Source: a virus
Taxonomy: Duplodnaviria > Caudoviricetes
IMG/VR virus record: IMGVR_UViG_3300025645_000111
Span: 1-51,015 of that record
Length of the DNA stretch: 51,015 nucleotides
Reading direction: 5' to 3' (one strand)
Numbering within the stretch: position 1 is the first letter of the stretch; each line of letters starts with the position of its first letter. The position numbers and the translations under genes are program-made. Below the pieces are notes generated by a model, which saw nothing but the letters and a program-made list of their open reading frames with translations, searched no databases and was not told where the DNA came from. Below, piece by piece: positions 2,302 to 49,836 of this stretch.

Positions 2302-2303
2302 AA

Positions 2304-22917: not shown

Positions 22918-23353
22918 GGGACCATTCTTCTTCAAGCCAAAGAAGAGCTTCAGCCTCTCTGCGCCGCACCAGGCCATCTAGGACCTTGCCGCCGGCTTTA
23001 TTCCATCGCTTTATTTGATGAGGTACGTCATCCAGGTCCCCAGAGTTTAGCCTGGTCAGAAGCGTAGAAGATTTTAGATTAGTTGGCCCCAGGTTGAACG
23101 TCCAGGCAACCAGGGCATCAAATTGATTTTGCGTGAGCTCTGTATCTACCAGGTCATTGACATAACCCTCAAACTCTACCAGGTCATCTATGAGGATCGT
23201 CTCAGCATCGTCCTTGGTGCAAGTATCGCCTTCACTTACTCCCCTGGTATGGCCATAGCCTATAGTCCAAACGTCTGCGCTGCACTGATACGCATTTAAT
23301 TCACAGCCCTCAAACTTCTTAATTAAAGCTATGCCTTCTCCGCTTGTTTTCAT
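22910..23353 (-). CDS. Endolysin (GH24 phage lysozyme)
   Basis: IKKFEG...YQCSADVWTIGYGHT...QNQFDALV...GLVRRREAE; probable start 23353 with AGGAG RBS. Confidence 0.92.
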   Translation of the reverse strand: MKTSGEGIALIKKFEGCELNAYQCSADVWTIGYGHTRGVSEGDTCTKDDAETILIDDLVEFEGYVNDLVDTELTQNQFDALVAWTFNLGPTNLKSSTLLTRLNSGDLDDVPHQIKRWNKAGGKVLDGLVRRREAEALLWLEEEWSHV

Positions 23354-25568: not shown

Positions 25569-28500
25569 TTATGATTCTAAGTCCGCTACTCGCGCACGTA
25601 GGGTTTGTATTTCTTTGACAAGCATTGGGACTAGCTTGCTGTAGTCCACACCCATCATTTCGTCAGGGTCTTCTAAGGCTGATACTGCTTCTGGTGCAAC
25701 GATTTGTAATTCTTGAGCTACCATACCGTAATCTTGGTGAGAGCCGTCTGCTTTCCAATCAAACTTGCGTACTTGGATGGAGTCTATCTTGCTACCTGCG
25801 TCATCAGCGTCTGCAATGTTTTCTTTGAGGCGTTGGTCTGATGAGGTGTTGTAGGCAGTCCCACTTGAATTGGATATAATTGACCCTTTGTTAGCACCGC
25901 CAAGATAGAAAAATAATTGGCTACCTGACCCAGTATCTATTGCAACCCCATAGGCGTTTGCATTAGAGTTTGTGAAATGCCCAACAAAATGTGATGCTTG
26001 GTTTTCACTTACTGTAAGTGTAGCCTGTTGTGTAGCAGTACCCATACATACTGCATTATTACCACTATCGACAAACAGCATATGGGTGTCGCTGTCAGAC
26101 TCAACGCGGAAGTCTTGCCCTGCGTTACCTGCATCGTTAAATATAGCTCCAGACGAATTTAACGCCATGAGACTAATCCAACTGATACTTGCGTCTGACC
26201 CTGTGTCAGCGGCATAGTTAAAATTATATGCGGCACTACCTGTTTGGAGCATGGTTGGGGCATAGCCCGTAAGCCGTTGTTTCCACCCAGAACCGTAGTA
26301 AGCGTTGTGTAGTAAGTAAGTGAAGTTGTTATCTACAGAGAGGTTAAAACAAGCATTGGAGTAACTAGCCCCTTGAAAAGCGTAAAGGTTATCTGCAACT
26401 ACAACGCTGTTGCCGCCTATCCATGATGGTACACCTGCGGGCATTCCCATTGAAACAATATCTTCACCACTATCAACAAACAGCATATGGGTGTTGTTGT
26501 CAGACTCAACGCGGAAGTCTAATGAGGCTGAACCACCTTCGTTAGCTATGACACCACCACTTGTGAGAGACAGGACATTTGTTACTGATCCTACATAATA
26601 ATCGTACCCGCTTGCGTAGAACCTAGCCGTGTCATACGCGGCGGTAGAGCGGTTATAGAACTGGACAAGGCTGGTAGTGGTATTTATACCCTGTGGACCG
26701 AGCTCAATACCGGACGAGCCGTCCTTAGATACTACAAACTCATAACTTGGCGCTCCGGTGCCGATCCCGACCCGATTATTATTAGCATCAACAAACAACA
26801 TATTAGCGTTGCCGTTAGACTCAACGCGGAAGTCACGGTCTACGCTTGCATTGTTTATTACTAGCTCGCTCGGCAAAATATCTAAAGCGTTTACGGCATT
26901 ACCCGCAGTCATGACTTGGATGTCCATTCCAAAATCTTCGGTGCCGTCGGTTACGTCCTTTATGTAAGAACGCACTTTCATATAATCTTTTATCGCACCT
27001 GCACTATTTCTACCTTGATAAAAAATAGTTGATAAAGGGTCATCATCAGCAGGGCTTGAGGAGTCTCTGAAAAGAACTATGTCTGGCCCAGAAGCATTAT
27101 TTGCCTGTGTGCTGTGTAAAGTTAGGTATGTTCCATCAAGAGTATTTTTTATTATTGCATCACCAAGAACGGACAATGTTTTAGTTGGTGTTGACTCGCC
27201 TATACCGACTCTATTATTGCCACCATCAACCCTTATCATATTAGCGTTGCCGTTTGACTCAACGCGGAAGTCTACATCTGCACTATCTTCGTTAAATATA
27301 ACACCACCTGCGGCACGAACATCTAGTATATCAGTGCTTGAGATGTACATCTTTCCAACAGTCTGACTGCCAGAATTAGTTTCCATATTAATGTTGCCAA
27401 TTTCGTTCGCACCATTAACAAAACTTATTACACCACTGTCAGCACCATTAGATGCTGTAGAGCCAATGTTTAATCTACCTCTGTTAGCTGTGCCAATAAT
27501 ACCTACATAGGTTCTTGCGGCAGTGCCATCGCTTGTAACATCACCGTCAGCTACGCCTATTCCGACAGAGCCGAGGTTATTGATGGTCATTTTTGCTGAG
27601 TTCACGCCAGACGTAGCTGTCTGAAACTGAAGGCCAGAAGACAAAGTTGTGCCGCTATTGACCTCTGCAACAGCGCTAATTCGAGCCATTTGTTGCGTAT
27701 TACCATCCCCATTACGATCACCAGCAAACACGATGCCGGGGCCAAAGCCTGTAGTAGTAGTGCCAGAGGAACGGGCGTTAAGGTACAGTTTCGTATCTAC
27801 AGCGTTTGTTGTACCCGTAGAACTTGATATTCTTAAACCATTTGCTTGAACAGAGCCATCACCAATACCTACACCGTCTGCACCAGCATCAACAAACAAC
27901 ATATGTGACAGGTTGTCAGACTCAACGCGGAAGTCTAGGTTCACGGCAGTATCGTTGATTACAACTTCTTGAGTATCTGCATGCAGAATACTACGGCTGT
28001 TTGTTACGTCATAAATGTCTAACGAACCGTTGGCTACTTGTCCATCCGCAATTCTCCAATTCTTAGTGGTTGCACCGGTTTTAGCAATTTCAAATCCGAC
28101 TGTACTATTTCCGCCAACTTCTGTTTTTACTAGCGTTGTGCCTGTTGATTTTTCAACATGGAGGATTTCATCGGCGGATTCAACGCCTATACCTACGTTC
28201 CCGCGATCTAACGTAAGCGTGTTGTTATATGCGGTGCCGTTGTTTGTAAGGTGAAACTGATACCCAACAACGCCGCTTGCGACTATCGCTGAGTCTAGCT
28301 CTAAGAAAAAATTATCTTCCCCCGAAGCGTAGGAACCTCTTAGTATGTTGGCGTTATCACCAAACTGTATATCTAAAGGTGCGGCAGGGGAGCTAGTAAA
28401 CAAACCAACGCGACCATTACCTGCATCAACAAACAAAGCATGAGTGTTAGCGTCTGATTCAACGCGGAAGTCCCTATCGGCACCTGTTTCATTGAAAGTG

Positions 28501-29714
28501 ACATTGCCGCCGTCTATTTGGAAATAGTTGACGTAATTTGAACCGTTGTCTGTTGAAAGGAGGTATTGAAAATCATCACTGCCCCCGCCGTTGAACAAAA
28601 GCCTATGTCGGTTTTGGAAAGTAGATGTGCTAGGGCTTTCTAAATATAATTGTAAACCGCCATTTCCGGTTCGTATATTTGCGTAATTTGCGCCAGCAAA
28701 CGCGTCGTTATCAAAAATTAATTTTGGTTCATCGGCATCCGTTGCTGTGTCGTTACGCAAGGTCAGGGTGTTTGCGCCTACAAGCGTAGCGGTTGTTCCA
28801 GTTAAAGCACCATCAATGTCCACGACATCAAGGTTAGTAGTGCCGTCTACGTCTATGTCGCCTGAGATGTCTAGGCTTGCCGCAATGATCTCGCCGCTTG
28901 CGTTGATGGCTCCGTTAATATCAATCGTAGTAGCAGCTATCTGAATCTCTGTGTCAGCAACGAGGTCGAGCTGTCCGTCTGCGCTTGAGTTTATGTATAT
29001 GGCTGAATCACGGAATTGAACTTTCTGTGCGGTTGTTACTTCTATATCAGTTGATCCAGTGGTATTACCCTGGGCCAAAACCTCAGCCAGGGTGTCAAAA
29101 GATGCTACCGAAGAATCAACATACGCCTTAATAGACTGCTGTGTGGCCAGGGCGGTTGCGCTATTGGAGGACATGTTGTCCTGGTCCAGGATGTCAGTTA
29201 CCGCAACAGCTCCGGTGCCAGAAAGTGAGTCAAACTCAACAGCCGCTGCATCAACAGTGCCAGAAGCAGTCAGGTTGACAACCGTGGTGGTGCCGGTAAG
29301 GTCAGTATCAACTAATAGGTCATAAACAACAGCGCCGCTGCCGGCACCGTCTGTGGCAATCATCTTCACCTGGCCAGCTGGGACCGCAACATTTGCGCCA
29401 GAGCCCTGGGAGAAGGTAAGGGTAGAGTTGGTGGTATTTTCAACCATCCAAACTTTAGATAAGGTGTTAGGTGCCAGGGTAACAGTACAAGCCTGGCCGC
29501 CGCCGGTCAGTTTTAAGTAAAACGACCTGGCTGAGTCAGCTGTTCCATCGGCAACAGTGATTGTATGAGTGGAGGCGTTAGCAATAGCTTCGGAGCCATA
29601 ACCCAAGGCTTCACCAATCAGTTCCAGGTTGGTGTTAGTGGTTGTGCCCCAGGTTCCAGATCCTTCACCTGTTGCCAGCTCAGTAAGCCGTAAGTTATTA
29701 ACGTAAGTAGCCAT
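25569..29714 (-). CDS. Modular tail fibre with C-terminal intramolecular chaperone (peptidase S74)
   Basis: 1381 aa; six DFRVES[DN] repeats; C-terminal SSDQRLKENI...GMVAQEL...VDYSKLVPMLVKEIQTL. Confidence 0.9.
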   Translation of the reverse strand: MATYVNNLRLTELATGEGSGTWGTTTNTNLELIGEALGYGSEAIANASTHTITVADGTADSARSFYLKLTGGGQACTVTLAPNTLSKVWMVENTTNSTLTFSQGSGANVAVPAGQVKMIATDGAGSGAVVYDLLVDTDLTGTTTVVNLTASGTVDAAAVEFDSLSGTGAVAVTDILDQDNMSSNSATALATQQSIKAYVDSSVASFDTLAEVLAQGNTTGSTDIEVTTAQKVQFRDSAIYINSSADGQLDLVADTEIQIAATTIDINGAINASGEIIAASLDISGDIDVDGTTNLDVVDIDGALTGTTATLVGANTLTLRNDTATDADEPKLIFDNDAFAGANYANIRTGNGGLQLYLESPSTSTFQNRHRLLFNGGGSDDFQYLLSTDNGSNYVNYFQIDGGNVTFNETGADRDFRVESDANTHALFVDAGNGRVGLFTSSPAAPLDIQFGDNANILRGSYASGEDNFFLELDSAIVASGVVGYQFHLTNNGTAYNNTLTLDRGNVGIGVESADEILHVEKSTGTTLVKTEVGGNSTVGFEIAKTGATTKNWRIADGQVANGSLDIYDVTNSRSILHADTQEVVINDTAVNLDFRVESDNLSHMLFVDAGADGVGIGDGSVQANGLRISSSTGTTNAVDTKLYLNARSSGTTTTGFGPGIVFAGDRNGDGNTQQMARISAVAEVNSGTTLSSGLQFQTATSGVNSAKMTINNLGSVGIGVADGDVTSDGTAARTYVGIIGTANRGRLNIGSTASNGADSGVISFVNGANEIGNINMETNSGSQTVGKMYISSTDILDVRAAGGVIFNEDSADVDFRVESNGNANMIRVDGGNNRVGIGESTPTKTLSVLGDAIIKNTLDGTYLTLHSTQANNASGPDIVLFRDSSSPADDDPLSTIFYQGRNSAGAIKDYMKVRSYIKDVTDGTEDFGMDIQVMTAGNAVNALDILPSELVINNASVDRDFRVESNGNANMLFVDANNNRVGIGTGAPSYEFVVSKDGSSGIELGPQGINTTTSLVQFYNRSTAAYDTARFYASGYDYYVGSVTNVLSLTSGGVIANEGGSASLDFRVESDNNTHMLFVDSGEDIVSMGMPAGVPSWIGGNSVVVADNLYAFQGASYSNACFNLSVDNNFTYLLHNAYYGSGWKQRLTGYAPTMLQTGSAAYNFNYAADTGSDASISWISLMALNSSGAIFNDAGNAGQDFRVESDSDTHMLFVDSGNNAVCMGTATQQATLTVSENQASHFVGHFTNSNANAYGVAIDTGSGSQLFFYLGGANKGSIISNSSGTAYNTSSDQRLKENIADADDAGSKIDSIQVRKFDWKADGSHQDYGMVAQELQIVAPEAVSALEDPDEMMGVDYSKLVPMLVKEIQTLRARVADLES
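26098..28472 (-). repeat. Six direct 17-bp repeats GACTTCCGCGTTGA(G/A)TC inside the fibre gene
   Basis: + strand gactcaacgcggaagtc at 26098, 26503, 26818, 27256 and 27919, and a one-mismatch copy at 28456; spacings 405, 315, 438, 663 and 537 bp. Confidence 0.92.
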
Positions 29715-30888: not shown

Positions 30889-31680
30889 CTATGCAGCTTC
30901 GCCGATACCTTGGAATTTGCGGTCCAGGATACGGCGTACTTTAGAGTAAGTGATATCAGCAGCGCAAGCGTGGAGCGATGCGACCTGCTTAGCAATCTTC
31001 CTGGGGCCCAGCCCTCGGTCCCGCAGTTTGTAAATCGTCATCAACACATCCTGCTCTTCGGGGATCTCCTCCAGGCGAGTCCTGGTCTTATTGCCGTGCT
31101 TCTCCTGGACCTTAGCGTAGCCATAAGGAGCGCTGCCACCAATGAAGTATCCGCGAGAGGCCCAATCTACCTTGCCATCACCAAATCGGTCCTTGATGGT
31201 GGAGTGTTCTATCTCAGCAACCGCTGAAAGCACCATAAGCATGATCTGGTTAGCCATTTCGTTCATATCAAACTTAGATCTCAGGCCCTTCTGGCCTTCT
31301 GGCTTAGGATATACGATGGGCACCTCGCCAAACTGCTCACAAAAGAACAATGTAATGCCAATATCTTGCAATACGGGGATAATTGACAGCAAATCGGCGC
31401 TGGACCTGGATAATCGGTCCAATCGAGTGCAAACAATGACATCATGACGATCAATGATGTCGGTGAGCTCTTTACTGCCTGGTCGATCCAGGATTGGCCT
31501 GGTGCCGGACACGCCGTCATCTACCAGGAACTCTGTAACCTCTCGGTTATACTTCTCTTTAACAAAGTCAGCAATCTGCTGCTGCTGAACCTCTAAGGAC
31601 ACGCCAGATCGTACCTGCTCTTTAGTCGATACCCTGACATAGCCATAAATATTGTTGATTTGCTTGAGCGGATTAATCAT
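30889..31680 (-). CDS. Serine recombinase (resolvase/invertase catalytic domain with a short C-terminal DNA-binding region)
   Basis: YGYVRVSTKEQ (catalytic Ser), DDGVSG, RP, RLDRLSRS, GSAPYGY; 263 aa. Confidence 0.9.
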   Translation of the reverse strand: MINPLKQINNIYGYVRVSTKEQVRSGVSLEVQQQQIADFVKEKYNREVTEFLVDDGVSGTRPILDRPGSKELTDIIDRHDVIVCTRLDRLSRSSADLLSIIPVLQDIGITLFFCEQFGEVPIVYPKPEGQKGLRSKFDMNEMANQIMLMVLSAVAEIEHSTIKDRFGDGKVDWASRGYFIGGSAPYGYAKVQEKHGNKTRTRLEEIPEEQDVLMTIYKLRDRGLGPRKIAKQVASLHACAADITYSKVRRILDRKFQGIGEAA

Positions 31681-32360: not shown

Positions 32361-32387
32361 TTCTCACTCCTTAATTACTACATTGCT

Positions 32388-32416
32388 AATGTATCCTATA
32401 TCGTGTCGTTGTGCAA
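32388..32416 (-). promoter_or_regulatory. Sigma70-like promoter with AACGACACGATA spacer box
   Basis: TTGCAC-aacgacacgatatagga(17)-TACATT. Confidence 0.75.
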
Positions 32417-32450
32417 GCATAAATATACTTTAATTTAATTTAATAAATAG

Positions 32451-32479
32451 TTGCACAACGACACGTTATTAGGTATATT
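32451..32479 (+). promoter_or_regulatory. Sigma70-like promoter with spacer box
   Basis: TTGCAC-aacgacacgttattagg(17)-TATATT. Confidence 0.75.
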
Positions 32480-32510
32480 GTAAATGTAAGTTAATTATTA
32501 AGGAGAAGTT

Positions 32511-32822
32511 ATGACTGCGTTTGTTAAAGAAGATTTTGCCTGGGACGGTATGTACTTAATGTATCGAGGCCGTCACTCTGAGTCTGTCAATATGGAGGTT
32601 GCACACCCTAACTGTCACCCTTCATGGATCGGCAAGCCAAAGCCAGCGTTTATTGCTCGCTTCAAATACGGCAGCAAGCCCTGGAAGTCTTGGGTAAACT
32701 GCTTGATGGATAACTATACTGTCGAAGGTTATCTCCAGGCTTGCAAAGAAAGCAGCCCGTTAGAGGCCGTCCAGGCTAAAGGTTACAAGGGTCGCGGCAG
32801 GTATAAGAGGATGGCAGCGTGA
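32511..32822 (+). CDS. Hypothetical early protein
   Basis: 103 aa, TAAGGAG RBS. Confidence 0.75.
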   Translation: MTAFVKEDFAWDGMYLMYRGRHSESVNMEVAHPNCHPSWIGKPKPAFIARFKYGSKPWKSWVNCLMDNYTVEGYLQACKESSPLEAVQAKGYKGRGRYKRMAA

Positions 32823-32894
32823 TAGATATTGCGTTGCTTTTTACAGCCACAATGATGGGAGGGCTCCTGGCTCTCCTATTTGCCGAGGATAAAA

Positions 32895-33008
32895 ATGAGT
32901 AAAATCATTATTGAGTTAGACAAAGAGGACGCTGAAGAAGTCCTTAAAACCCACGCGGAAATCCTGGAGTTATTGCGGGAGATCCTCAAGGAGCTGCAAG
33001 ATGGATAA
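32895..33008 (+). CDS. Small hypothetical protein (37 aa)
   Basis: MSKIIIELDKEDAEEVLKTHAEILELLREILKELQDG; GAGGA RBS. Confidence 0.55.
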   Translation: MSKIIIELDKEDAEEVLKTHAEILELLREILKELQDG

Positions 33009-33210
33009 GTATTTCGACACTCTGGACCAGGCTGAATTGTTCCACGTGGAACCTGGTATGACTGAGAAGCAGCGAATGAAAATCTACAAACGTGCCCTGA
33101 ACGTGCATCATAACGCGGGGCCTGAAGCCAAACACATCGTAAAAATCTGGAGAGAGCAGAAAGATGAGCAAAGGTCACACCCAACGCCCCACCAATATGA
33201 AGAGTTTTAG
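33001..33210 (+). CDS. Hypothetical protein
   Basis: 69 aa, AAGGAG RBS. Confidence 0.6.
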   Translation: MDKYFDTLDQAELFHVEPGMTEKQRMKIYKRALNVHHNAGPEAKHIVKIWREQKDEQRSHPTPHQYEEF

Positions 33211-33349
33211 CGACAATTTTGATCGCATCTTCAACAAACCAACCGATCCTCGATTCTGTGACGCGCATGATTTGCGCCTGGTTGAGGACCCTAAAACCAA
33301 ACAAATGGTTTGCCCACACTGTGAGCAAGCCAAAGGAGAAGCAATATGA
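33164..33349 (+). CDS. Small zinc-ribbon-like protein
   Basis: CDAH...CPHC. Confidence 0.6.
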   Translation: MSKGHTQRPTNMKSFSDNFDRIFNKPTDPRFCDAHDLRLVEDPKTKQMVCPHCEQAKGEAI

Positions 33350-33540
33350 GTGCAGATAGATACGAGCTGGAAGAGTTCTTCCAGGCAGAGAGCGGCAGCG
33401 GGTACGTTGTTACCAGGCGCTGCGGTGAAGCAAGTTATGAGGAGATAATAGCCAGGCGTGCCAAGATCCTGGATAAGCAAAAGAAGCCTCACGGGATCTA
33501 TTACATTAGCCCCCAGGGCGAGCGCAGCCGAGTTAAGTAG
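33346..33540 (+). CDS. Hypothetical protein
   Basis: 64 aa, AAGGAG RBS. Confidence 0.65.
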   Translation: MSADRYELEEFFQAESGSGYVVTRRCGEASYEEIIARRAKILDKQKKPHGIYYISPQGERSRVK

Positions 33541-33551
33541 GCTGCAATTAG

Positions 33552-33580
33552 TTGTACAACGACACGATAAGTGTTACAAT
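33552..33580 (+). promoter_or_regulatory. Sigma70-like promoter with spacer box, upstream of the HD hydrolase
   Basis: TTGTAC-aacgacacgataagtgt(17)-TACAAT with extended -10 TGn. Confidence 0.78.
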
Positions 33581-33607
33581 AAACTGTATTGAGAAGGGAG
33601 GTGTGTT

Positions 33608-34048
33608 GTGGTTGCTGGGTTTCAAAAGGCTTTAGAGGTTGCCGTTGCCGAGTATGAGGAGCTGTTCGATAAGAACGGCTTGCCTATCATATTCCACGCG
33701 ATGGCCGTAGCCAAACCCATGATGGAGAAGTATGGCGAGACGCATGCTATTGTTGGATTGTTGCATGACGCTTACGAGAACGTCTGGAATACTGAGCAAG
33801 ATTTCATCGAGTGCGGTGAGATCTTTGGTCCTGAAATAGAGGCTGCGGTTCGAGCGGTCACTAAGGCCCCTGGTGAGGATTACTTGGAAGAATACATCCC
33901 CAGGTGTTTTGCCAACCCGATTGCAAAAGCAGTTAAGGTGTGCGACCTCAAAAACAACTACAATGGTCTTGACAGTATACCCAAGCCTGCCGATAGAAAA
34001 AGATTGGCAGCCAAGTATGCAGCAGCATTGCTCATGGCAGGAGAATAA
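33608..34048 (+). CDS. HD-domain hydrolase, SpoT/Mesh1-like small alarmone hydrolase
   Basis: DKNGLPIIFHAMAVA...GLLHDAYE...FGPEIEAAVRAVTK...VKVCDLKNN; GGGAGG RBS. Confidence 0.85.
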   Translation: MVAGFQKALEVAVAEYEELFDKNGLPIIFHAMAVAKPMMEKYGETHAIVGLLHDAYENVWNTEQDFIECGEIFGPEIEAAVRAVTKAPGEDYLEEYIPRCFANPIAKAVKVCDLKNNYNGLDSIPKPADRKRLAAKYAAALLMAGE

Positions 34049-34049
34049 T

Positions 34050-34283
34050 ATGGAAAAGATAGAGAGTTATTGGACCTGGGAAGAAGCGCCAGGCGTTTTA
34101 GTTGACTACGGTGACGATAATTTTGGTGGATTTCACCTAGCCCAGGGCTCTGACGAATGGGAAAAACAGACCGAGTGGGATGTCGTTCAGTGGTTTAAAG
34201 AGGGTAAAAAGCTATCTAAGCCCAGTTTTGAAATGAAATACGGAAAGATCGGGGACCAGCTTCCACAACTCCCCCTTTCATAA
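34050..34283 (+). CDS. Small Trp-rich acidic protein (candidate immunity protein)
   Basis: 77 aa from ATG 34050 (AGGAG RBS), coupled to the HD gene; immunity role is inference. Confidence 0.65.
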   Translation: MEKIESYWTWEEAPGVLVDYGDDNFGGFHLAQGSDEWEKQTEWDVVQWFKEGKKLSKPSFEMKYGKIGDQLPQLPLS

Positions 34284-35484
34284 ACTTATCCACAAGCTGC
34301 TCCACAATAGCAGGATCCGCTGCATCAAAAGCAGCACCAAACAGGCGCCTCTGCTCAGCAAGCGCCTTATTGTATAGCTTCAGCTTAGTACCAGGTATCT
34401 CGTGGTTGTACCGGCCTTCTAGCTTCCTGGAGTAATCATACCAGCGGTGAGCTCCCTGCTCCCCCGCATCAAACATTTCAGGCGTCTTAATCTGGATCTC
34501 AGCAACAATCTTCTTGCCGGTAGCCGGATCATCAACCAGGACATTCATCTTCCGGTCAAAGTAACCAGATTCAGGTATGCGCTGCCAACCTCGGTCGATA
34601 GTCGTGTACATCTGGCCTATTTGACTCACAGCCTCTTCTGCCTGGTCTGCAGTATCTATGTAAATCGTTGTTCTTACGCCATCGGTGAAGTCTGCCGGCG
34701 CCAGGCCCTTTCTCTCAACCTTGGTGGCTATGCTTTTCGGCGTCTTGACCTCAACATCAAACTGGCTGCCATCTTTTAGGTTGATAAACTTATCAGCTTT
34801 CTTGCCACCAACTGACTTAGCCACTGAGTCAATGTTAGCCTGGAATGAAGGGTTCACTGTGTTAGCTCGCTGGACCATGGCTTCAACCGAATTAAGATCA
34901 CCTTGCTGCCGTTTAAGTGCAGCCTCAATCTCTCTCACTCGCTCAATACCCAGCTCCTGGAATACAGGGGTGGTTCTGATCGGACCATCTACCTTGGTGC
35001 CCTGCTCAATCGCTGCAACTAACCTGGCGGCATCAATGGCTTCAACACCATCACCTACCCTGGCAACATCCTGGGGCAGATTATCAATTCCACCGGTCAG
35101 CTTCATGGCTTTTCTAAGTGCGCCTGGTGCCTTCAACGCGGTCCCCAGCGTAGCTCCGAGCGGCGGAATCACGTAGGTCGCATCACCCAGGACGCCTAAC
35201 GCCTGCAGCGCAGGATCTAGGATGTTGCCCTGGCGAATGTTCTCCAGGATAGAAGGATTGTTTTCGGCATCAAATATATCGGTGAGACCTGTATCAGACG
35301 ATGGCATTCCAGGCATATTACCGGTAGCATCAACAGTCGCTGCCCCAGGAAGTAGTTGCGCTGCAAAATACGCAGCCTGCTCCTCAGTCAGAAAAGGATC
35401 ACTCTTCTCTTCGGGATCGCGCATCATATCACTGACGCTGCCCCCAAGGTTAAAAGCGAATATGTCGATATCGTCTCTATTCAC
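34216..35484 (-). CDS. RelA/SpoT-family synthetase (SAS-like) domain protein with a long N-terminal extension
   Basis: VKTPKSIATK, TDGVRTTI, ESGYFDRKMNV, AEIQIKT, AHRWY; GTG start with GAGGTG RBS. Confidence 0.82.
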   Translation of the reverse strand: MNRDDIDIFAFNLGGSVSDMMRDPEEKSDPFLTEEQAAYFAAQLLPGAATVDATGNMPGMPSSDTGLTDIFDAENNPSILENIRQGNILDPALQALGVLGDATYVIPPLGATLGTALKAPGALRKAMKLTGGIDNLPQDVARVGDGVEAIDAARLVAAIEQGTKVDGPIRTTPVFQELGIERVREIEAALKRQQGDLNSVEAMVQRANTVNPSFQANIDSVAKSVGGKKADKFINLKDGSQFDVEVKTPKSIATKVERKGLAPADFTDGVRTTIYIDTADQAEEAVSQIGQMYTTIDRGWQRIPESGYFDRKMNVLVDDPATGKKIVAEIQIKTPEMFDAGEQGAHRWYDYSRKLEGRYNHEIPGTKLKLYNKALAEQRRLFGAAFDAADPAIVEQLVDKFMKGGVVEAGPRSFRISFQNWA

Positions 35485-35491
35485 CTAATAA

Positions 35492-35584
35492 TCACCTCGT
35501 AAGTAAATGCCAAAGGGCAATTGAGACAAATACGACAACTAGCGCTAAGCCTTTCCAAGTGTCGGGGTCTCTCCAATCATCCAT
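35492..35584 (-). CDS. 30-aa single-pass membrane microprotein
   Basis: MDDWRDPDTWKGLALVVVFVSIALWHLLTR fills the gap upstream of the synthetase. Confidence 0.55.
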   Translation of the reverse strand: MDDWRDPDTWKGLALVVVFVSIALWHLLTR

Positions 35585-35588
35585 TGCA

Positions 35589-35774
35589 TCACCTAAATGA
35601 ATCGTCTGGGCCCACTATCGGCCTCATGAAATTTTCGGTGCCTGGTTCAGATTCGGATCTAGCCACCCTATTATCAAAAAAATCTACTGCTTCATAATAA
35701 TCCATGTCGCTCTTTTCAACAAGCAAAGCGATGCAGCGGTCACGATCTCCAGGACCATCTCTAAAGTCAGTCAT
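35589..35774 (-). CDS. Hypothetical protein
   Basis: 61 aa acidic. Confidence 0.55.
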   Translation of the reverse strand: MTDFRDGPGDRDRCIALLVEKSDMDYYEAVDFFDNRVARSESEPGTENFMRPIVGPDDSFR

Positions 35775-35788
35775 TAACCAGGTACACT

Positions 35789-36145
35789 TTAGTCAGTTGG
35801 ATTAGGATCTTTGTAAAGGGCCTCAACAGTGCCGATCCTTATTGTGAGCTCATGAACACGGTCCTGCATTTCCCGCAGCTCGGACAAATCTCTATCAAGG
35901 CCCTCAATCATCATGTCTTGCCTGGCATCTGCCGGCAGAGCACCTAGCTGGCCCCTGGGCCAAAGGATGCGAAACTCAGAGTTGGACTTGATCTCAACAT
36001 CGGTTAGCTCAATCTTATGCTCCAGGGCAGTCAATCGAGACTCAACCGTAAAATACGCCATGGTCGATACCGCTGTAAAAGCAATCATTGCCAGGAGGTT
36101 TTTAAGTGGAATGGTGAGAGCGGTATTCTCGTTGAGCTCGGTCAT
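35789..36145 (-). CDS. Membrane-anchored coiled-coil protein
   Basis: 118 aa, N-terminal hydrophobic helix; FRILWPRG. Confidence 0.7.
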   Translation of the reverse strand: MTELNENTALTIPLKNLLAMIAFTAVSTMAYFTVESRLTALEHKIELTDVEIKSNSEFRILWPRGQLGALPADARQDMMIEGLDRDLSELREMQDRVHELTIRIGTVEALYKDPNPTD

Positions 36146-36390
36146 TACCGTTTCCTATAGGTCCTGGTCTTGCCAGCCACCTTCTTGGGCTGAGCGCTAT
36201 GCTGCTTACCCTTCTTTGTATCCGCTCGCTTCTTCCTGGTAGTCGCTGCATATTCCTTGTCGGACAGCGCCTTGATAGCCTTCTTCGGTAAATAACGCTC
36301 ACCGGTTTCAGCGCTAGGCTTACCGGACTTCGTGGTCCATTTCTGTTTAGTCCACTTCTTCAGGGACTTTTGGGGTTTCTTTAATGCCAT
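36145..36390 (-). CDS. Small highly basic protein
   Basis: 81 aa; QKSLKKWTKQKW, TGERYLPKKAI. Confidence 0.75.
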   Translation of the reverse strand: MALKKPQKSLKKWTKQKWTTKSGKPSAETGERYLPKKAIKALSDKEYAATTRKKRADTKKGKQHSAQPKKVAGKTRTYRKR

Positions 36391-36575
36391 TATTTTTTAT
36401 AGCCTCCCCCCGCCTTCTTATATTCAGAAGCCAGCAATTGAGCCTTCCTGGCAGACCATTGACCCGCCTTTCCGCCCTTAGTACCAGCCTTGATACGATT
36501 GAACAGGTTTTTACGCATTGTGGGCTTAGTATAATTGCCCGAAGCATTCACCGTCGATTTTTTTTTGACCGCCAT
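36390..36575 (-). CDS. Small highly basic protein
   Basis: 61 aa; GQWSARKAQLLA...GGGY. Confidence 0.75.
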   Translation of the reverse strand: MAVKKKSTVNASGNYTKPTMRKNLFNRIKAGTKGGKAGQWSARKAQLLASEYKKAGGGYKK

Positions 36576-36993
36576 AACTACCCTCCTTAAAGTATTTACC
36601 CAATAGTATAAACCATTGGTCCAAAGTCATTACCACGGTTTGCGCGTTGTCGCGCTCGAAACCAGGGTTGATCGCGTGAATCGGCACGCAGACCCTTATG
36701 GCTTTGTTGTTAAACTTATAGATAAGGACGGGAGTTCTGTCACCGCACGCCTCAAGCACCTGGTCCCACCAGGCGGGGGCATACCACCAGCCACTCTTAT
36801 ACGCCTTGGCCTCAATAGCATGACCAGGTATCTCAATGTCACACATGCCTGCAGTCTGATATTGATCGAGGTTGCGCTTACAGGTGAGGTCCTGGCCATT
36901 ACCATCGACTACCCCGTTATCCGCGAAAAAAGTATTTAGGCGCTTGACCAAATCACGCTCGAAGGCAGCTCCTTTGTTGCGTGAATCAGCCAT
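36526..36993 (-). CDS. PD-(D/E)XK nuclease, Holliday-junction resolvase-like
   Basis: SRNKGAAFER...CDI...AIEAK. Confidence 0.7.
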   Translation of the reverse strand: MADSRNKGAAFERDLVKRLNTFFADNGVVDGNGQDLTCKRNLDQYQTAGMCDIEIPGHAIEAKAYKSGWWYAPAWWDQVLEACGDRTPVLIYKFNNKAIRVCVPIHAINPGFERDNAQTVVMTLDQWFILLGKYFKEGSYGGQKKIDGECFGQLY

Positions 36994-37517
36994 ATCATCA
37001 TTTCCTTTTATTTAAAAATTTGAAAAAAATTTTTCCCCCCAGGCAACCCAAACGTCCCTAGAGTTTACCCCCCTGGACAATTTGGTGTGCAAAAATTTGC
37101 ACATAGAATCTGAAAGGGCAAAGTGTTTATCCATTACAGAATTTTAGTTACTGAATGTGTAAAACTCAAGTAAACCTATCCCGCTGGCCGCCGCCCCATT
37201 TAGGGGGGTGCCGCCCCAAAAAAACCAAAGGGATTCGATCTCGTTTTCTGGATCCATAGGGGTCCAATAAAATCCTGCCCTGGTGGCCCATATCCAGGCA
37301 AATCAGGCCCAATCAGCCCTGTTTGTGACCCCCGTGCTCACAGGGGGCGCGGACCAGGCTGCTCAATCCCTGGCAAAACCTGCCCTATATCACTGATTCT
37401 TATGGGAATTCCCTTTTTTATAACTTTTTTGCATATATCTGGGCACCAAAAAGAAAGAGCCCTCTTTCTTGGTTATATTCAACCTTCCCCAGGCTACCCT
37501 TTGCTTCGCAACTTGCG
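36994..37517. other. 524-bp non-coding region downstream of terS (candidate packaging site or genome end)
   Basis: No ORF of 60 aa or more; G, C, A and T homopolymer runs and palindromes such as TGTGCAAAAATTTGCACA near 37087. Confidence 0.4.
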
Positions 37518-38045
37518 CTACACATCCTTGTCATCGTAGGTAGTTTTTATGCCCAATAAATCGTTCAGCCTCTCCTTGATATCCTCCTTGGTCATGCGCT
37601 CCAGGTTGGCGTTGATGTTAAGGTTTTGGCTGCGTTGTATTGACAGACCTGCCAGGCTGTTGAGCTCCTTCACCGCACTCACGGCAGCATTGTATGCGCC
37701 CTGCTCGAACGATGTCTCGGCGATATTCCATAGCATCGCACCAGTCTTTTCTGGCGTGATTGCATATTTCTCGCGCAGCTCTTCCTGGGCGATCCGCACT
37801 GCTTTTGTCACCTTCGGATGATCCCTACCGTTCAGCATCTTCGATGCGGCATTAGCTGGGAAGCTGAAGCCTGCTCTTCGAGCTGCCTCTGTCTGTCCGC
37901 ATGCACCTTCGGTGTAGTGCCAGACGAACCCTGCTTGCATATCGGTAATGCCCAGCTCCTCGTCTGCGACGAATTGAATGGGCGCGTTTGTGAGCTTAGG
38001 CTTTTCCTTCTTGGGTCTGCCTAATTTCTTTTCTTCTTCAGCCAT
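37518..38045 (-). CDS. terS: Terminase small subunit
   Basis: TDMQAGFVWHY...TEAARRAGF...ASKML...PKV HTH pattern. Confidence 0.78.
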   Translation of the reverse strand: MAEEEKKLGRPKKEKPKLTNAPIQFVADEELGITDMQAGFVWHYTEGACGQTEAARRAGFSFPANAASKMLNGRDHPKVTKAVRIAQEELREKYAITPEKTGAMLWNIAETSFEQGAYNAAVSAVKELNSLAGLSIQRSQNLNINANLERMTKEDIKERLNDLLGIKTTYDDKDV

Positions 38046-38199: not shown

Positions 38200-38503
38200 T
38201 CTTCTCCAGTGTACAGTGTAGGGTATAGTAGGTGTCTCATAGTAAGGCTATATGACCCTATATAAACTATAAATAACTCTACTTTATACTTATATAAAAC
38301 TGCTCTACCTAAAAGACTATACCCTACCCTACCTATAAAAAAACAAGCGATATATCAAGGACTTACGCATACACCTAACAGGGTACAGTGTATAGCTAAT
38401 CTCATTGTATAAATTTGCATACATTATCGTGTCCACTTATACCAACTTTATACATCGACACGATACACCAATTATGCCTACCTGTACCCTGCACCTCACC
38501 CTG
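38200..38503. other. Candidate replication origin / control region
   Basis: AT-rich non-coding tract next to the primase-helicase with GTACAGTGTA x2, TACCC repeats and an inverted GACACGATA pair. Confidence 0.45.
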
Positions 38504-40666
38504 TCACATATCCCACTTCGGGGCCGGTGGGAAGGTGTCATCTGCGGTGACTACCGCGTCATAATCCAGGTCATATATCTTCTTGCCATTGCTATATCTT
38601 GGTTCAACACCACGATCAGCGAGCACCCTGGCAGCGTCTTTGAAGTCCGCCATCCTGGGGTTGTTGATTCCCATGTCTCTGAGCAAGTGCGTCATTTGCA
38701 CTGGCTTCTTGTCTGCACTGTCAAACCGTATGTATTGTAGCAGTAGGTCTTCGACCGCGCTCTGGGTTCTAAAGAACTCGTTGCTGTCCTGCAGCATGAC
38801 CCGCTCTTCACTTGTAAGGAACCAGTTACGATCTCCCTTGGCATACATCGTCTGCTTGATCTCGGCCCACACTTGTTGCATGTTCAAGCCATGGCGCCAG
38901 TCTATCTCTGTCACCGGTACAACCCAGAACCGTCTGTTGCCGCTGGTGTCGATCAAGAACTCCCTCTCATTCACACTGGCATAGAACGCTGTGCGCCGCT
39001 GGTAATTGCTAAACGCTCGGTCATAAGGTAGGCGTAACTCATCGCTGCGCTTGGTTAGGAATGCCTTGAGCTGGTCAATATCTGCACGCTTGAAGGTGGA
39101 TCCCAACTCTCCGAGCTCGCATATCCAATGGCTAACACACTGCTTCACACTGTCCTTGTCCTGGGGATTCAGTGTAGCGCCTTCCAGCAGCCACTCTTTG
39201 TTCGGTGCCAGGCTGTTGAACCACTGCGTCTTACCGACTGCCTGGGCTCCCTGGAATACCAGGATACCCTCCAAATTAGCTCCGCCCTCCTCGCATGCTG
39301 CAGCAACACATCCTTGCAGCCACTTCTTCATCAGCATCTCTTTGAGCGGCTCATTAGGACTCTTAATGGTATCTAGGAACATCTGCAGCCTGGCCTTTCC
39401 ATCCCAGGGCTCACTCTCCATCCACTCCTTGACCGGATTGTACTCCCTGGCCAGCAGCTTCAGATTGAACCGGATACGTTCATGGGGGATCCCCATCTTG
39501 ATAGCACGGTCCTCGATCTCAATAATCGCCGCGTCATCCTTTAGGTCAGCGATAAACTTCTGGTTGGGTATGTGTATCTCGATCGCCTTCTTAATGACGT
39601 TGTAGTCCACCTCTATCTGATTGGTAACCAGGACGCCACGATGATTGTCCTTGGTGTGCAGGAAGCGCCCATTGCTGTTGCGCTCAAAGTCATACTCCTC
39701 CGGTATCCTCACCTCTTGCAGCGCCGGAATCACCTCTCCCTGCAGCGCTTCTTTGTGATCGTTGTAATCCCCCTTAGACTGCGGCATCAACACCTCAGCC
39801 TGGCCACCCCCACTCTTCACCGCCTGGGCTGCCTTAATTGCCTCTTTCTCGCCGGTCGCATTGTCATCGAAATCCGCGATGAAAATATGCTTGGCCTCAG
39901 CGAAGTGCTTGAATATGACTTCCGCAACAGGAGCCAGGTTGTAAGCATCAAAGCTCACCACCACCGGCTGCTTCATATCCTGGTAGTAACTGGCAGCTGT
40001 CGCATACCCTTCACAGTAGTTGATAGTGTGAGCGCCCTGGAGTAGGTCCTGGCCCAGGATGAAGAAGCTGCCCTTCTTCTTGGAACCAGTAAGGAACATC
40101 TTCCCCCCACCATCGTCAATATACTGCAGACCGACAATACTGAGAGATGCGTCCAGGAGAGGGATCATCAAGCGCCCATCGTTGTGCTGCTTGAGACCGT
40201 GACTTAATACATTCTTCTTGGTTAGGTAAGGGTGCTCGCTGCAGTCCTGGGCACCCTCCCAGATATTAGTGCTGCGCTTAGCAGCTCGGTTGTTCTTCTC
40301 TTCTTTCTTTGCCTGAGCTTCTGCCTGGAGCTGCTTGATCTCCTCTCGCTGCTCATCAGTCATCTTATAGCTGCTGCTGTTGTTCGGCTTCCAGGTTGCG
40401 GTGGGGTTAGCACTATCTACACGATAGTCACCGCATCGGCCAAAAGGGACGGTCTGGTCCGCCCAAAATTGATACCAACCAGTGAGCTTCTGCTTGCCAC
40501 CGACATCCATATAGGCTCTGCCAATGCTGCCATCGACCAGGAGGCCCTTCTTTTGGTCCAGTTGTAAGCCATTGTCTGCCAGGAACGATTCAAACTCTTG
40601 CCGGAAATTGCCCGTTATGGGCCTTGATTTATCTTTTTTATTGGTTGCACTGACTAGAAATGACAT
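38504..40666 (-). CDS. Toprim primase fused to a VapE-family helicase
   Basis: HPYLTKK, LQYI, CEGYATA, IADFDD (Toprim); FQGAQAVGKT Walker A, ELGEL, RLPYDR, GNRRFWV (VapE); probable start 40666. Confidence 0.85.
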   Translation of the reverse strand: MSFLVSATNKKDKSRPITGNFRQEFESFLADNGLQLDQKKGLLVDGSIGRAYMDVGGKQKLTGWYQFWADQTVPFGRCGDYRVDSANPTATWKPNNSSSYKMTDEQREEIKQLQAEAQAKKEEKNNRAAKRSTNIWEGAQDCSEHPYLTKKNVLSHGLKQHNDGRLMIPLLDASLSIVGLQYIDDGGGKMFLTGSKKKGSFFILGQDLLQGAHTINYCEGYATAASYYQDMKQPVVVSFDAYNLAPVAEVIFKHFAEAKHIFIADFDDNATGEKEAIKAAQAVKSGGGQAEVLMPQSKGDYNDHKEALQGEVIPALQEVRIPEEYDFERNSNGRFLHTKDNHRGVLVTNQIEVDYNVIKKAIEIHIPNQKFIADLKDDAAIIEIEDRAIKMGIPHERIRFNLKLLAREYNPVKEWMESEPWDGKARLQMFLDTIKSPNEPLKEMLMKKWLQGCVAAACEEGGANLEGILVFQGAQAVGKTQWFNSLAPNKEWLLEGATLNPQDKDSVKQCVSHWICELGELGSTFKRADIDQLKAFLTKRSDELRLPYDRAFSNYQRRTAFYASVNEREFLIDTSGNRRFWVVPVTEIDWRHGLNMQQVWAEIKQTMYAKGDRNWFLTSEERVMLQDSNEFFRTQSAVEDLLLQYIRFDSADKKPVQMTHLLRDMGINNPRMADFKDAARVLADRGVEPRYSNGKKIYDLDYDAVVTADDTFPPAPKWDM

Positions 40667-40740
40667 TATTTTGTTGATCCTCCGCTTAGAATGTGTAGAA
40701 TAGTGCAAACTTATACAAACAATCAAGAGGTATTTGCAAA

Positions 40741-41496
40741 ATGGCACTAACAGCAAGCGCAGGATCGGGTGGTGAATCCACCTTTGAAACCGTACCACCA
40801 GGCTCTTACGAGGCTATCTGCTATCGACTTGTCGATGCAGGCACAGCGGAGGAAGATTACAAGGGAGAGATCTCCAAGAAGCATAAAATTTATATCTTCT
40901 GGGAAATCCCTGAGCTCACACTGAGCGATGGCCGCCCATATTCTATCTTCCACGGGTACACTTTGTCACTTAATGAGCGCAGTAATCTGCGTCGAGATCT
41001 CCAGGCATGGCGTAACCGGCCATTCACTGAGGAAGAGCTGCAGGCTTTTGACCTGACCAAGCTGCTCGGTGTGACCTGTAAGATCAACGTGGTCCTAAAT
41101 AGCAACGGCAACGCAAAGGTTGATGGCATTTTCTGCTCTGACCAGGGCGCCAAGCGCGTTGAAACCACGAACCCGACCTCAGTGTTTGACCTCGAAGAGT
41201 ACACCAAAGAATTTTCCGGCGAGAGCTGCGAGGCCAGCAAGGCGATGTGCGATGTCTTTGAAGAGCTGCCACGCTTCATCCAATGGCGAATTGCCGGTTG
41301 CGATGAAGACGGTAGAGACCAGCAGGCCCCGTGCTTTGAAGTGGCTGCAGCCTGGAAGAAAGGCGGCAATGTAACCAGCACACCACCTGTGTCTGGCTTA
41401 GAAGCAATGGCTGCTGATAAAGCAAAAGCGACAAAGAAGTCAAAAAAGAAGGAAGAGCCTGAAGAGGACTTCATCGACGACGACATCCCGTTTTAG
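40741..41496 (+). CDS. Single-stranded DNA-binding-like replication protein
   Basis: 251 aa with acidic DDDIPF C-terminal tail; divergent from the primase. Confidence 0.7.
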   Translation: MALTASAGSGGESTFETVPPGSYEAICYRLVDAGTAEEDYKGEISKKHKIYIFWEIPELTLSDGRPYSIFHGYTLSLNERSNLRRDLQAWRNRPFTEEELQAFDLTKLLGVTCKINVVLNSNGNAKVDGIFCSDQGAKRVETTNPTSVFDLEEYTKEFSGESCEASKAMCDVFEELPRFIQWRIAGCDEDGRDQQAPCFEVAAAWKKGGNVTSTPPVSGLEAMAADKAKATKKSKKKEEPEEDFIDDDIPF

Positions 41497-43895: not shown

Positions 43896-43925
43896 ATAGT
43901 CTCATATTATCGTGTCGTTGTATAC
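43896..43925 (-). promoter_or_regulatory. Promoter with spacer box (weaker hexamers)
   Basis: GTATAC-aacgacacgataatatga(18)-GACTAT. Confidence 0.6.
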
Positions 43926-44010
43926 ATCTTTACACATTATATATAGACCGTGTAGTTATAAGGGCTGCAGCTGATATGCACTTTTATTCTATATATATTT
44001 GTGCAAACAC

Positions 44011-44039
44011 TTGCACAACGACACGATATGTGTGATTAT
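44011..44039 (+). promoter_or_regulatory. Promoter with spacer box
   Basis: TTGCAC-aacgacacgatatgtgt(17)-GATTAT. Confidence 0.7.
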
Positions 44040-49083: not shown

Positions 49084-49836
49084 TTAGTCCTTGGTGAAGT
49101 ATATCATCTGACCATCTGCGCCAGGACGTTGAAATATTGGAGCACCTGAGCTGTGGTATCTCCCTGTAAATGTAGCATCTGGAAACTCTGCTGGAGCACT
49201 GGTGTCTTGCGGCTGAGTAAATATGTCTTCGACAGTAATCCCAGGAACCTGCACAACCCTGGCACCCTCTTCTGTTTGGACCGTCTGCATTCTAGGCTTC
49301 TGAACAAACTTGAGCGCGAGCTTATATTCTGGCGTGTTCTTCAACGATGGATTTTTTTCTGCTTCCAACAAAATGTTAAACATCTGAGCCTCTAGGCTCT
49401 TGCCAGCAAAGACGCCTCCCGTCTCTTTCAGTACCTGAAGATCATACTTAAACTTTGCGTCAAGCATTTTCTCCTGCATAGCTTTTGCATCTTGCCTTCT
49501 TTGCTCTACATCCTGATAAGCCATCTGCATGAGCTTGGACCGCATTTCGTCAGCTCTTTGCTGGCGCTTCTGGGCTGCCTCGCTGTAAAGATTAAATCCT
49601 GCTGCCAGGCCATAACCAATAGATGAGGGTCTACCACTTGCTGCTTGCTCAACCAAGCCTCGGCTAAGATCTGAAGCCATGCCATACAAGCCGCGCTTCC
49701 TGGTGGTAGGCATAAGAAAAGAAAGCTCCTGGGCTTTTTTATTTATTGCCTCTAGGTCGATTCCAGATTGCGGCTGATTCTGCATTGCCTGCAGCTGTTT
49801 GAAATATTCAAGGGTTGGATCCGTTGTCTCCGCCAT
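49084..49836 (-). CDS. Putative internal virion protein
   Basis: 250 aa helical, within the ejection-protein cluster. Confidence 0.65.
   Translation of the reverse strand: MAETTDPTLEYFKQLQAMQNQPQSGIDLEAINKKAQELSFLMPTTRKRGLYGMASDLSRGLVEQAASGRPSSIGYGLAAGFNLYSEAAQKRQQRADEMRSKLMQMAYQDVEQRRQDAKAMQEKMLDAKFKYDLQVLKETGGVFAGKSLEAQMFNILLEAEKNPSLKNTPEYKLALKFVQKPRMQTVQTEEGARVVQVPGITVEDIFTQPQDTSAPAEFPDATFTGRYHSSGAPIFQRPGADGQMIYFTKD

Follow-up and report, generated by a model that had tools for sequence, protein, structure and literature searches.

The closest described counterparts of the locus analyzed here are the Apk2–IapK/Tis1–Aph1 systems (PMC10083569, PMC12226406), in which a phage carrier domain is followed by a C-terminal, Tas1-like toxin domain of the RelA/SpoT fold, a small cognate immunity protein is always present, an HD-domain immunity protein of the (p)ppApp-hydrolase type is sometimes present, and toxin domain and immunity are exchangeable as a cassette. 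For phage MuF-fused (p)ppApp synthetases, Tis1-like immunity was found in all cases examined, with the Aph1 gene “sometimes absent” (PMC10083569). RelA/SpoT domains are also listed among the phage-type domains of polyvalent proteins, which are predicted to be injected together with the DNA (Iyer et al. 2017, PMC5512222). The basic idea pursued below is already published in these two lines of work. Here we describe a locus at positions 33,552 to 35,584 of the IMG/VR virus record IMGVR_UViG_3300025645_000111 (one viral record of 51,015 bases with a completeness rating of 97%, called the window throughout), where the gene of a 422-aa protein ending in a RelA/SpoT-like domain, the candidate toxin, faces two convergent genes, one for an HD-domain hydrolase homolog and one for a 77-aa Trp-rich protein that we call W77. 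We lean toward reading the locus as a toxin–immunity system, leaving its delivery in the virion open.

Several differences set this locus apart from the described systems. Whereas Apk2 belongs to the MuF polymorphic toxins of temperate phages and has its immunity downstream in the same operon, here the carrier is a non-MuF module, the gene is placed away from the head module, and the immunity genes are convergent, overlapping and served by a promoter of their own; furthermore, the acceptor motif (syn3) reads GYFDRK rather than the GxN of Apk2, the hydrolase has EN in place of ED and lacks equivalents of Aph1 D116 and R119, and no sequence similarity between W77 and Tis1 is detectable. Tas1/Apk1–Tis1 of Pseudomonas aeruginosa (6ox6), a type VI effector delivered with a PAAR domain by the type VI secretion system, carries GYSGVN as its acceptor motif, while the window toxin is a phage protein. 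The toxSAS systems (FaRel/ATfaRel, CapRel, PhRel; PMC7229694, PMC11782079) likewise have a RelA/SpoT-fold toxin neutralized by a small protein or a hydrolase; unlike them, the window locus has no PADLOC match, a swap-in carrier, convergent genes instead of an operon and a toxin domain closer to Tas1 than to CapRel. In polyvalent proteins, orthologs vary in their strings of effectors (RelA/SpoT, ART-PolyVal, GNAT, Zeta-like kinase) as relatives of the window protein do, but the latter has a single effector domain, its N-terminal module belongs to no Pfam or LPD family, and a dedicated pair of immunity genes typifies polymorphic toxins more than it does the polyvalent proteins described in PMC5512222.

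The toxin gene (34216..35484, minus strand) opens with GTG behind GAGGTGA and encodes an N module, a linker, the RelA/SpoT-fold domain and a disordered tail. The N module (aa 1–130; 35095..35484, minus strand) was delimited by alignment and carries the pattern DIDIF..NLGGSVS...LGVLGDATYxIP..G..LKAPGALRKAMK; the toxin domain (aa 198–397; 34294..34893, minus strand) was delimited by an AlphaFold2 (AF2) model, structure comparison and conservation; and the tail (aa 398–422; 34219..34293, minus strand), recognized by the predicted local distance difference test (pLDDT) of AF2 and by conservation, holds a conserved KFxxGGxV in which G404, G405 and V407 are at least 90% conserved across the toxin family. 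The AF2 model, built from 28 sequences, has a mean pLDDT of 69.5; it is confident for aa 198–397 and disordered for aa 1–30, 131–150 and 402–422 (pLDDT below 50 for the last of these).

Comparison of this model with solved structures confirmed, at the level of prediction, a RelA/SpoT synthetase fold. Foldseek returned SAS1, RelP and Tas1 at E values of 1e-5 to 1e-6 (best 3e-6), and VIA-align gave Z scores of 13.6 for SaEAS (8vx3), 13.0 for Tas1 (6ox6_A), 12.3 for SAS1, 12.2 for RelP and 10.5 for CapRel, with 160–173 residues aligned at a root-mean-square deviation (rmsd) of 2.8–3.6 for SAS1, RelP, Tas1 and SaEAS (Z 12.0–13.6); the best row from another family, DNA polymerase mu, reached Z 7.0. 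In Pfam, RelA_SpoT (PF04607) matches aa 246–352 at 27.5 bits against a cut-off of 27, a borderline value, and of 12 close homologs matching the same model only one (P0003, 27.1 bits) reaches the cut-off. The motifs themselves are VKTPKSIATK (aa 246–255), DGVR (268–271), SGYFDRKMN (306–314) and EIQIKT (329–334). Among 142 relatives, E329 is invariant (142/142), followed by R271 (141/142), D268 and K247 (139/142 each), D310 and R311 (137/142 each), Y308 (124/142) and K312 (119/142); K255, Q331, H346 and Y349 are conserved as well. The residues expected of syn1 to syn5 (K247, K255, D268, R271, Y308, E329, H346, Y349) are thus present and kept in 124–142 of the 142 sequences, with the Ser and His of the GYxSxH motif of RelA/SpoT homologs (RSH) replaced by D310 and K312.

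With the window domain placed first, a profile of 31 short members of the family was compared with the Protein Data Bank (PDB) and found Tas1 at E 1.7e-22, ahead of SaEAS (5.9e-11) and of the (p)ppGpp small alarmone synthetases and Rel enzymes (7.6e-6 or worse), so Tas1 is the closest solved relative by profile. Because this broader profile favors Tas1, the toxin-domain family is, by sequence, a branch of the Tas1/Apk lineage. Searching 1.84 billion representatives with phmmer retrieved 270 relatives at E≤0.001, 39 of them at ≤1e-10. A Pfam scan of 52 of these assigned a family (E≤1e-4) to 12 and left 40 without one; represented among the 12 were ART-PolyVal, LPD38, ddrB-ParB (three), Phage_Mu_F (one, P0124), DUF2213, GNAT, L5_gp82 and RelA_SpoT. 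In BFVD, the top matches are large proteins of uncultured phages labeled DdrB-like, ART-PolyVal-like or RelA/SpoT.

To place the whole protein, we used a word-indexed search, which found 72 relatives of modular architecture. In their common layout, an N module of ~130 aa is joined by a linker (TGGIDNLPQ, or variants of GIxxLP), in some cases with further domains inserted, to a last domain that is either RelA/SpoT-like or a Zeta-toxin kinase (62–73 bits against a Pfam cut-off of 22.3). A hidden Markov model (HMM) of the N module matches 52 open reading frames (ORFs) of 53 viral-contig loci, with one to three copies per ORF. Among the 20 N-module ORFs scanned for further Pfam families, ART-PolyVal exceeds its 31.2-bit cut-off in five of the nine ORFs that match it (L040, L041, L044, L047, L048), GNAT is weak, missing the family cut-off by 0.2 bits or more (L045, L053), Zeta_toxin occurs in L031, and six ORFs have no family. 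Several effector domains may share one polypeptide, as in the GNAT plus RelA/SpoT and ART-PolyVal plus RelA/SpoT combinations, and ORFs of 932–1304 aa combine two or three N modules with Zeta or RelA/SpoT.

Two natural exchanges are especially clean. In one locus (L010) the toxin domain is 95% and W77 99% identical to those of the window, while the N part is only 40% identical; conversely, in L023 and L024 the N part is 86% identical and the flanks are the same on both sides, but the last domain is Zeta and both W77 and the HD gene are missing. In these swaps, toxin domain and partners move as a cassette, which is a hallmark of polymorphic toxin systems, and we regard a toxin-domain/immunity cassette on a swap-in carrier as quite probable.

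Partner genes were called in the 53 loci by tblastn of the window genes and by HMM search of all ORFs, and the two sets of results agree. A RelA/SpoT-like domain is present in 22 of the 53 loci, and 18 of these have DNA beyond the 3′ end of the toxin gene. W77 was found in all 18, convergent and overlapping even where the toxin domain is only 54% identical, and in none of the 31 loci without a RelA/SpoT-like domain; scanning in the reverse direction with the W77 profile gave 20 loci (18 on the same contigs and two new), and the domain accompanies W77 in all 20. The HD gene adjoins the toxin gene in eight of the 17 loci that have room for it, all from closer clades (domain at least 72% identical in the seven that show it whole), and two more distant toxin loci (L015, L021) have a canonical Aph1-like HD gene 2–4 kb away. 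W77 is the constant partner of the toxin domain and HD the variable one. Many of the loci, however, are near-identical contigs, and the tallies stand for about seven clades, not for independent events.

These results bear on an earlier, sequence-only reading of the window, which had listed the toxin, HD, 77-aa and 30-aa ORFs and the promoter (all of which lie where it put them) and had proposed a RelA/SpoT-like domain on a noncatalytic N terminus, accompanied by a small immunity-like protein and by a hydrolase of the alarmone type. The domain call is borne out by Pfam and by the fold, and the pairing by the constancy of W77 and by the resemblance of HD to Aph1. Its suggested survey for the same N terminus on other toxin domains finds just that, with the convergent partners gone upon the swap; of its two HMM checks, the RelA_SpoT cut-off was reached narrowly and that of HD_4 was missed. 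Its account of the two partners needs one amendment: they are not equivalent, W77 being constant and HD variable.

W77 (34050..34283, plus strand; five Trp) is the candidate binding immunity protein and is translationally coupled to the HD gene. Its 3′ end overlaps that of the toxin gene convergently by 68 nt (34216..34283, from the coordinates), an overlap present in all related loci that physically links toxin domain and W77. The protein has 31 clusters of stand-alone homologs of 75–92 aa and no Pfam family. In the AF2 model (pLDDT 81), a small sheet is packed by two helices. Foldseek found nothing at E≤0.001 (Tis1 appeared at E 3.9); VIA-align placed Tis1 (6ox6_B, 76 aa) first, both of 389 re-aligned chains and of 48,161 representative chains. 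This top rank is suggestive of a Tis1-like fold, not of membership in the Tis1 family. Three observations tell against it: the match is weak (Z 4.1, rmsd 4.1, 61 of 76 residues) and tied with unrelated rows at 4.1–3.9, only two of the five W77 models are confident, and the W77 profile had no meaningful match among solved structures, and none to Tis1.

The HD protein (33608..34048, plus strand; 146 aa, HDAYEN), a homolog of small alarmone hydrolases, is the candidate enzymatic immunity. It scores 21.5 bits against HD_4 (PF13328), below the cut-off of 27.2, and matches phrog_990, “metal-dependent phosphohydrolase,” at E 4e-23; its best solved relative is Aph1 (7smg_A, “(p)ppApp hydrolase,” E 4.2e-9), with the hydrolase domains of Rel/SpoT and MESH1 ranking next. 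H30, H53, D54, D113 and N117 are invariant among HD relatives, in keeping with metal ligands of the H, HD, D type. D21, also invariant, aligns with Aph1 D24, where (p)ppGpp hydrolases have Arg; D24 and one other residue have been shown to determine specificity for (p)ppApp, and D24, D116 and R119 are given as the specificity residues of Aph1 (PMC10083569). What speaks against a working Aph1-like enzyme is, first, the change of the ED diad to EN, kept in all eight aligned sequences of the window's HD clade (the window and seven relatives, 68–85% identical), and second, N119 and D122 in the columns of Aph1 D116 and R119, in a stretch where the alignment is less certain. The distant HD relatives (P0266, P0267, L015, L021) keep ED, and the L021 and L015 proteins read DNMDVTR and DNMDVSR, as Aph1 does. 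In human MESH1, the change D66K left activity in an NADPH phosphatase assay severely compromised and made it possible to crystallize a substrate complex (bioRxiv 10.1101/325266); it falls at the same diad position, which adds to the case against, although Asp to Asn is the milder change. Owing to the ED-to-EN change, it is in doubt whether the HD protein would be active, retuned or a binder.

Taken as a whole, the locus would be a phage polymorphic (polyvalent-type) effector locus, in which the 422-aa protein combines a noncatalytic N module with an exchangeable C-terminal toxin domain, a putative pyrophosphokinase of the Tas1/Apk lineage. We propose that this domain transfers pyrophosphate from ATP to the 3′-OH of an adenine nucleotide, which would yield (p)ppApp-like products and drain ATP; W77 would be the cognate immunity protein, binding and blocking the toxin domain like Tis1/IapK; and the HD protein would serve as an accessory second antidote that removes the product, like Aph1. 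Expression of both antidotes would be driven by a promoter belonging to the class found in the divergent control regions of the phage.

The chances that the product is (p)ppApp-like appear to us about even. Toward this assignment, syn2 reads DGVRTT, an Apk-type RxT (compare DLARNT in Tas1 and RYT in Apk2; RSH have AVR). Of the published Apk signatures, syn2 RYT, syn3 GxN and syn4 YH (PMC12226406), the window agrees at the R and T of syn2 and disagrees at syn3 (DRK) and syn4 (IK). On the other side, GYFDRK fits neither the GxN of Apk nor the SxH of RSH, which leaves the acceptor uncertain; IK at syn4 is RSH-like instead of the YH of Apk2 (Tas1 itself has VN); the Z scores of Tas1, SaEAS, SAS1 and RelP lie within ~1 of each other and are tied, so that structure alone assigns no subfamily; the toxin domain alone and a close-family profile gave no useful sequence match among solved structures; and the link to Tas1 rests on the broader family profile. 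Exchanging syn motifs did not convert specificity in experiments (PMC12226406), so the product is not readable from the motifs.

Much the same evidence can be read as pointing to a domain that is not a (p)ppApp synthetase at all, a reading we consider improbable. GYFDRK is basic and specific to the family, CapRel is a clear structural match, EIQIKT at syn4 resembles the RSH motif EIQIRT, and neither inferring nor converting specificity from syn motifs has succeeded experimentally (PMC12226406). On the other hand, in the profile search of solved structures every (p)ppGpp enzyme trails Tas1 by more than 11 orders of magnitude and chains of CapRel or FaRel2 were absent from the matches, the linked hydrolases are Aph1-like and carry Asp where (p)ppGpp hydrolases have Arg, and a hydrolase as partner makes sense for a nucleotide product.

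The HD–W77 unit has a σ70-like promoter at 33552..33580 on the plus strand, identified by scanning (TTGTAC-17-TACAAT with a TG-extended −10), followed downstream by the ribosome-binding site GGGAGG. It matches 9 of 12 σ70 positions with the extended −10, a type of match that is not rare, as it occurs eight times in the window against 4.6 expected. The promoter is conserved in six related loci, where the changes improve the −10 to TATAAT, and its 18-nt core motif (TTGYACAACGACACGWTA) has six copies in the window against 0.09 expected; these two findings make it credible. The copies lie at 32399–32416 (minus), 32451–32468 (plus), 33552–33569 (plus), 38448–38465 (plus), 43908–43925 (minus) and 44011–44028 (plus), and the promoter class itself (TTGYACAACGACACG) is likewise present six times; the constancy of the spacer points to a single class of phage promoter, possibly accompanied by an operator. 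Five of the six motif copies fall in regions without listed ORFs of at least 60 aa, four of them in two divergent regions, while the copy at 38448–38465 lies just downstream of the primase/helicase gene and points antisense into it. One divergent region (32379–32488) is a 55-nt imperfect inverted repeat, 71% complementary and without a gap, between the minus- and plus-strand blocks; each arm holds one motif copy, back to back, and the whole looks like a divergent control region. The second is near 43908–44028. Since motif copies lie in these divergent regions, the HD–W77 unit shares its promoter class with the control regions of the phage.

The remainder of the window identifies a tailed phage by PHROG scans of its proteins, which assigned a terminase large subunit (21433–22977), a portal (18929–21433), a major head protein (14731–15648), a 1381-aa tail fiber (25569–29714), a primase/helicase (38504–40798) and a RusA-like resolvase (36526–36993), together with holin and endolysin genes. 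A small serine recombinase of 263 aa (30889–31680, minus strand), with PHROG matches to both integrase and DNA-invertase, is encoded two genes upstream of the tail-fiber gene; a search for inverted repeats around the fiber genes gave none that were convincing (best 16–17 nt, 82–88%). Between the RusA-like gene and the next minus-strand gene, ~525 nt (36993–37518) are free of ORFs of at least 60 aa. No tRNA genes were found in the window. The record has no exact terminal repeat (prefix equal to suffix), but bases 26–120 are identical to 50896–50990, a 95-nt repeat near both ends, and the ORFs that exit on the left (1–2307, minus strand) and enter from the right (49836–51014, minus strand) both hold the peptide MGQTAAQKAAAQS; the probable explanation is a closed or permuted genome in which one large repeat-containing gene spans the junction. 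A 195-aa structural protein encoded beside the major head gene (15664–16251, minus strand) is shared at 79% identity or more by at least 595 viral contigs, and on this basis the phage group is abundant in viral contig collections; the carrier–toxin gene, by comparison, was found in 53 loci only.

The sequence-only reading had the antidotes made early and the toxin late, from the strand of the virion genes. The strand was given correctly but is uninformative for timing, as 52 of the 64 listed genes of the window lie on it, early-type (the primase/helicase and RusA genes among them) and structural alike. A late toxin is not upheld: its gene is the last of the replication/recombination block formed with the primase/helicase and RusA genes, not of the structural block, and a short plus-strand block (32511–34283) converges on it. 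The toxin gene sits among genes of middle type, and the one firm point on timing is that the promoter serving the antidotes belongs to the class of the control regions.

Delivery of the toxin in the virion, the remaining part of that reading, falls a little short of even odds in our estimate. The case for packaging rests on analogy with polyvalent and MuF proteins, on the domain company kept by relatives and on a GG motif. MuF toxins have been hypothesized to be loaded into heads (PMC5576092). The motif [LM]GG[APS] occurs within the first 35 aa of five of the 64 window proteins, namely the toxin and four virion-module proteins (2304–4304, 9631–9870, 9872–12892 and 15664–16251, all on the minus strand), where it falls at residues 16–30 in the forms MNMGGP, MNMGGA, TLGGPG and MMGGAP. 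Shuffled sequences give a mean of 0.43, and none of 5000 shuffles reaches five, an optimistic figure, given that the motif was defined post hoc, after the sequences had been seen. MMGG[AS]P is kept in 77 of 80 relatives of the 195-aa protein (all at least 79% identical), and the residues just before it vary. The motif could be a leader for processing or for capsid targeting. The sequence-only reading had placed it at both ends of the toxin; the N-terminal one is indeed common to virion proteins, while the C-terminal GG (aa 404–405) is not the same motif. Delivery is further disfavored by the position of the toxin gene, far from the head genes and outside the head module, and by the lack of any MuF or portal link and of any cultured-phage homolog among the matches found. 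Megablast of 32400–36200 and tblastn of the toxin gave no match in cultured phages, and the two patterns used found no relative in 185,579 bacterial and archaeal species genomes, and hence no sign of prophage carriage.

We looked to the N module for further clues. It has no Pfam family of its own, and neither Phage_Mu_F nor PAAR matched the whole protein at E≤1 or aa 1–128 at E≤0.01 in Pfam; identification as MuF was rejected for want of Pfam support, the N part of the AF2 model being of low confidence, and identification as a membrane segment was rejected on a hydropathy maximum of 1.2. In the ESM Atlas, its best score was 0.87, below the trusted level, with PT-TG at rank 30 (0.83). In NCBIfam, neither the toxin nor W77 nor any of the small upstream ORFs matched a family, and PADLOC gave no defense model match. 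Directly upstream of the toxin gene lies the ORF of a 30-aa hydrophobic microprotein (35492..35584, minus strand; hydropathy 1.94), conserved in six loci (L003, L005, L008, L009, L023, L024; 52–100% identity by tblastn). Because it also precedes the Zeta-toxin variants, it is a conserved neighbor that is not specific to the RelA/SpoT toxin domain.

Two other features of the relatives were seen. The giant ORFs (L012 3417–6215, L028 4995–7928 and L029 3789–7703; 932, 977 and 1304 aa) hold two or three N modules and end in RelA/SpoT or Zeta; they look like fused tandem effector genes, or single genes before splitting. Separately, the 3′ end of the toxin gene in Zeta variants is the site of a conserved ORF of ~65 aa, which is read from the same strand in a different frame (L023 2841–3038, L028 7816–8016, L029 7594–7800, L031 4479–4679), with 46–48% identity among three copies, and the L031 copy lies wholly within a longer Zeta ORF. 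This may be the immunity gene of the Zeta domain, a frameshift product or an overlap artifact.

The main competitor of virion delivery is a module that acts in the producing or lysogenic cell and is never packaged, as a toxin–antitoxin, abortive-infection or superinfection-exclusion unit in the manner of prophage toxSAS-type systems, or as an enzyme of host takeover following gene expression, with the N module as regulator or sensor and not as carrier. The place of the toxin gene in the replication/recombination block rather than the head module fits such a unit, as do the σ70-like promoter that the antidotes share with two divergent control regions, the serine recombinase encoded nearby and the fact that no cultured-phage homolog or virion evidence was found. 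We nevertheless judge it unlikely: an N module common to unrelated toxin domains and present in two or three copies in the giant forms is typical of delivered polymorphic or polyvalent effectors, relatives of the toxin domain sit in ART-PolyVal, LPD38, ddrB-ParB and MuF proteins, PADLOC matched no defense model, and the two-pattern scan of bacterial and archaeal species genomes found no relative. Least probable of these readings is the alternative named in the sequence-only reading, that the HD hydrolase acts alone, against the host stringent response or toxSAS/(p)ppApp defenses, with its adjacency to the toxin incidental; although some phages, such as a Pseudomonas phage (PMC12846349), encode a small alarmone hydrolase on its own and no toxin with it, most Aph1 homologs are not beside toxins (PMC10083569) and HD is absent from nine of 17 toxin loci, all eight adjacent HD genes form a fixed unit with W77 behind the conserved promoter, HD is lost along with W77 and the toxin domain in Zeta variants with the same flanks, and two more distant toxin loci have an Aph1-like HD gene within 2–4 kb.

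Returning to the toxin–immunity reading, a more ambitious version, which we put forward as speculation and think rather unlikely, is that the N module of ~130 aa, with its N-terminal GG leader, is an undescribed, non-MuF carrier for virion loading and ejection, widespread in uncultured phages, which would inject Apk-like, Zeta, ART and GNAT toxins; antidotes made from host-type early promoters would then rescue the new host (hit, then antidote). Under the same proposal, the product of the GYFDRK domain, whose signature is conserved in ~140 polyvalent proteins of phages, would be neither (p)ppApp nor (p)ppGpp, and the EN hydrolase would either have adapted to this product or serve as a sponge that binds it.

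In the papers on Apk2, both the carriage of these toxins in virions and their benefit to the phage are called not known (PMC10083569, PMC12226406). With the window locus, the same three-part logic is available on a second, independent scaffold, within an abundant phage group and with clean natural swaps. It bears on what the carrier part does, on whether a leader marks packaged proteins, on how GYFDRK chooses its acceptor and on the activity of an EN hydrolase. With W77 as a candidate new family of small immunity proteins and the N module as an unannotated carrier, both would be useful additions to annotation pipelines.

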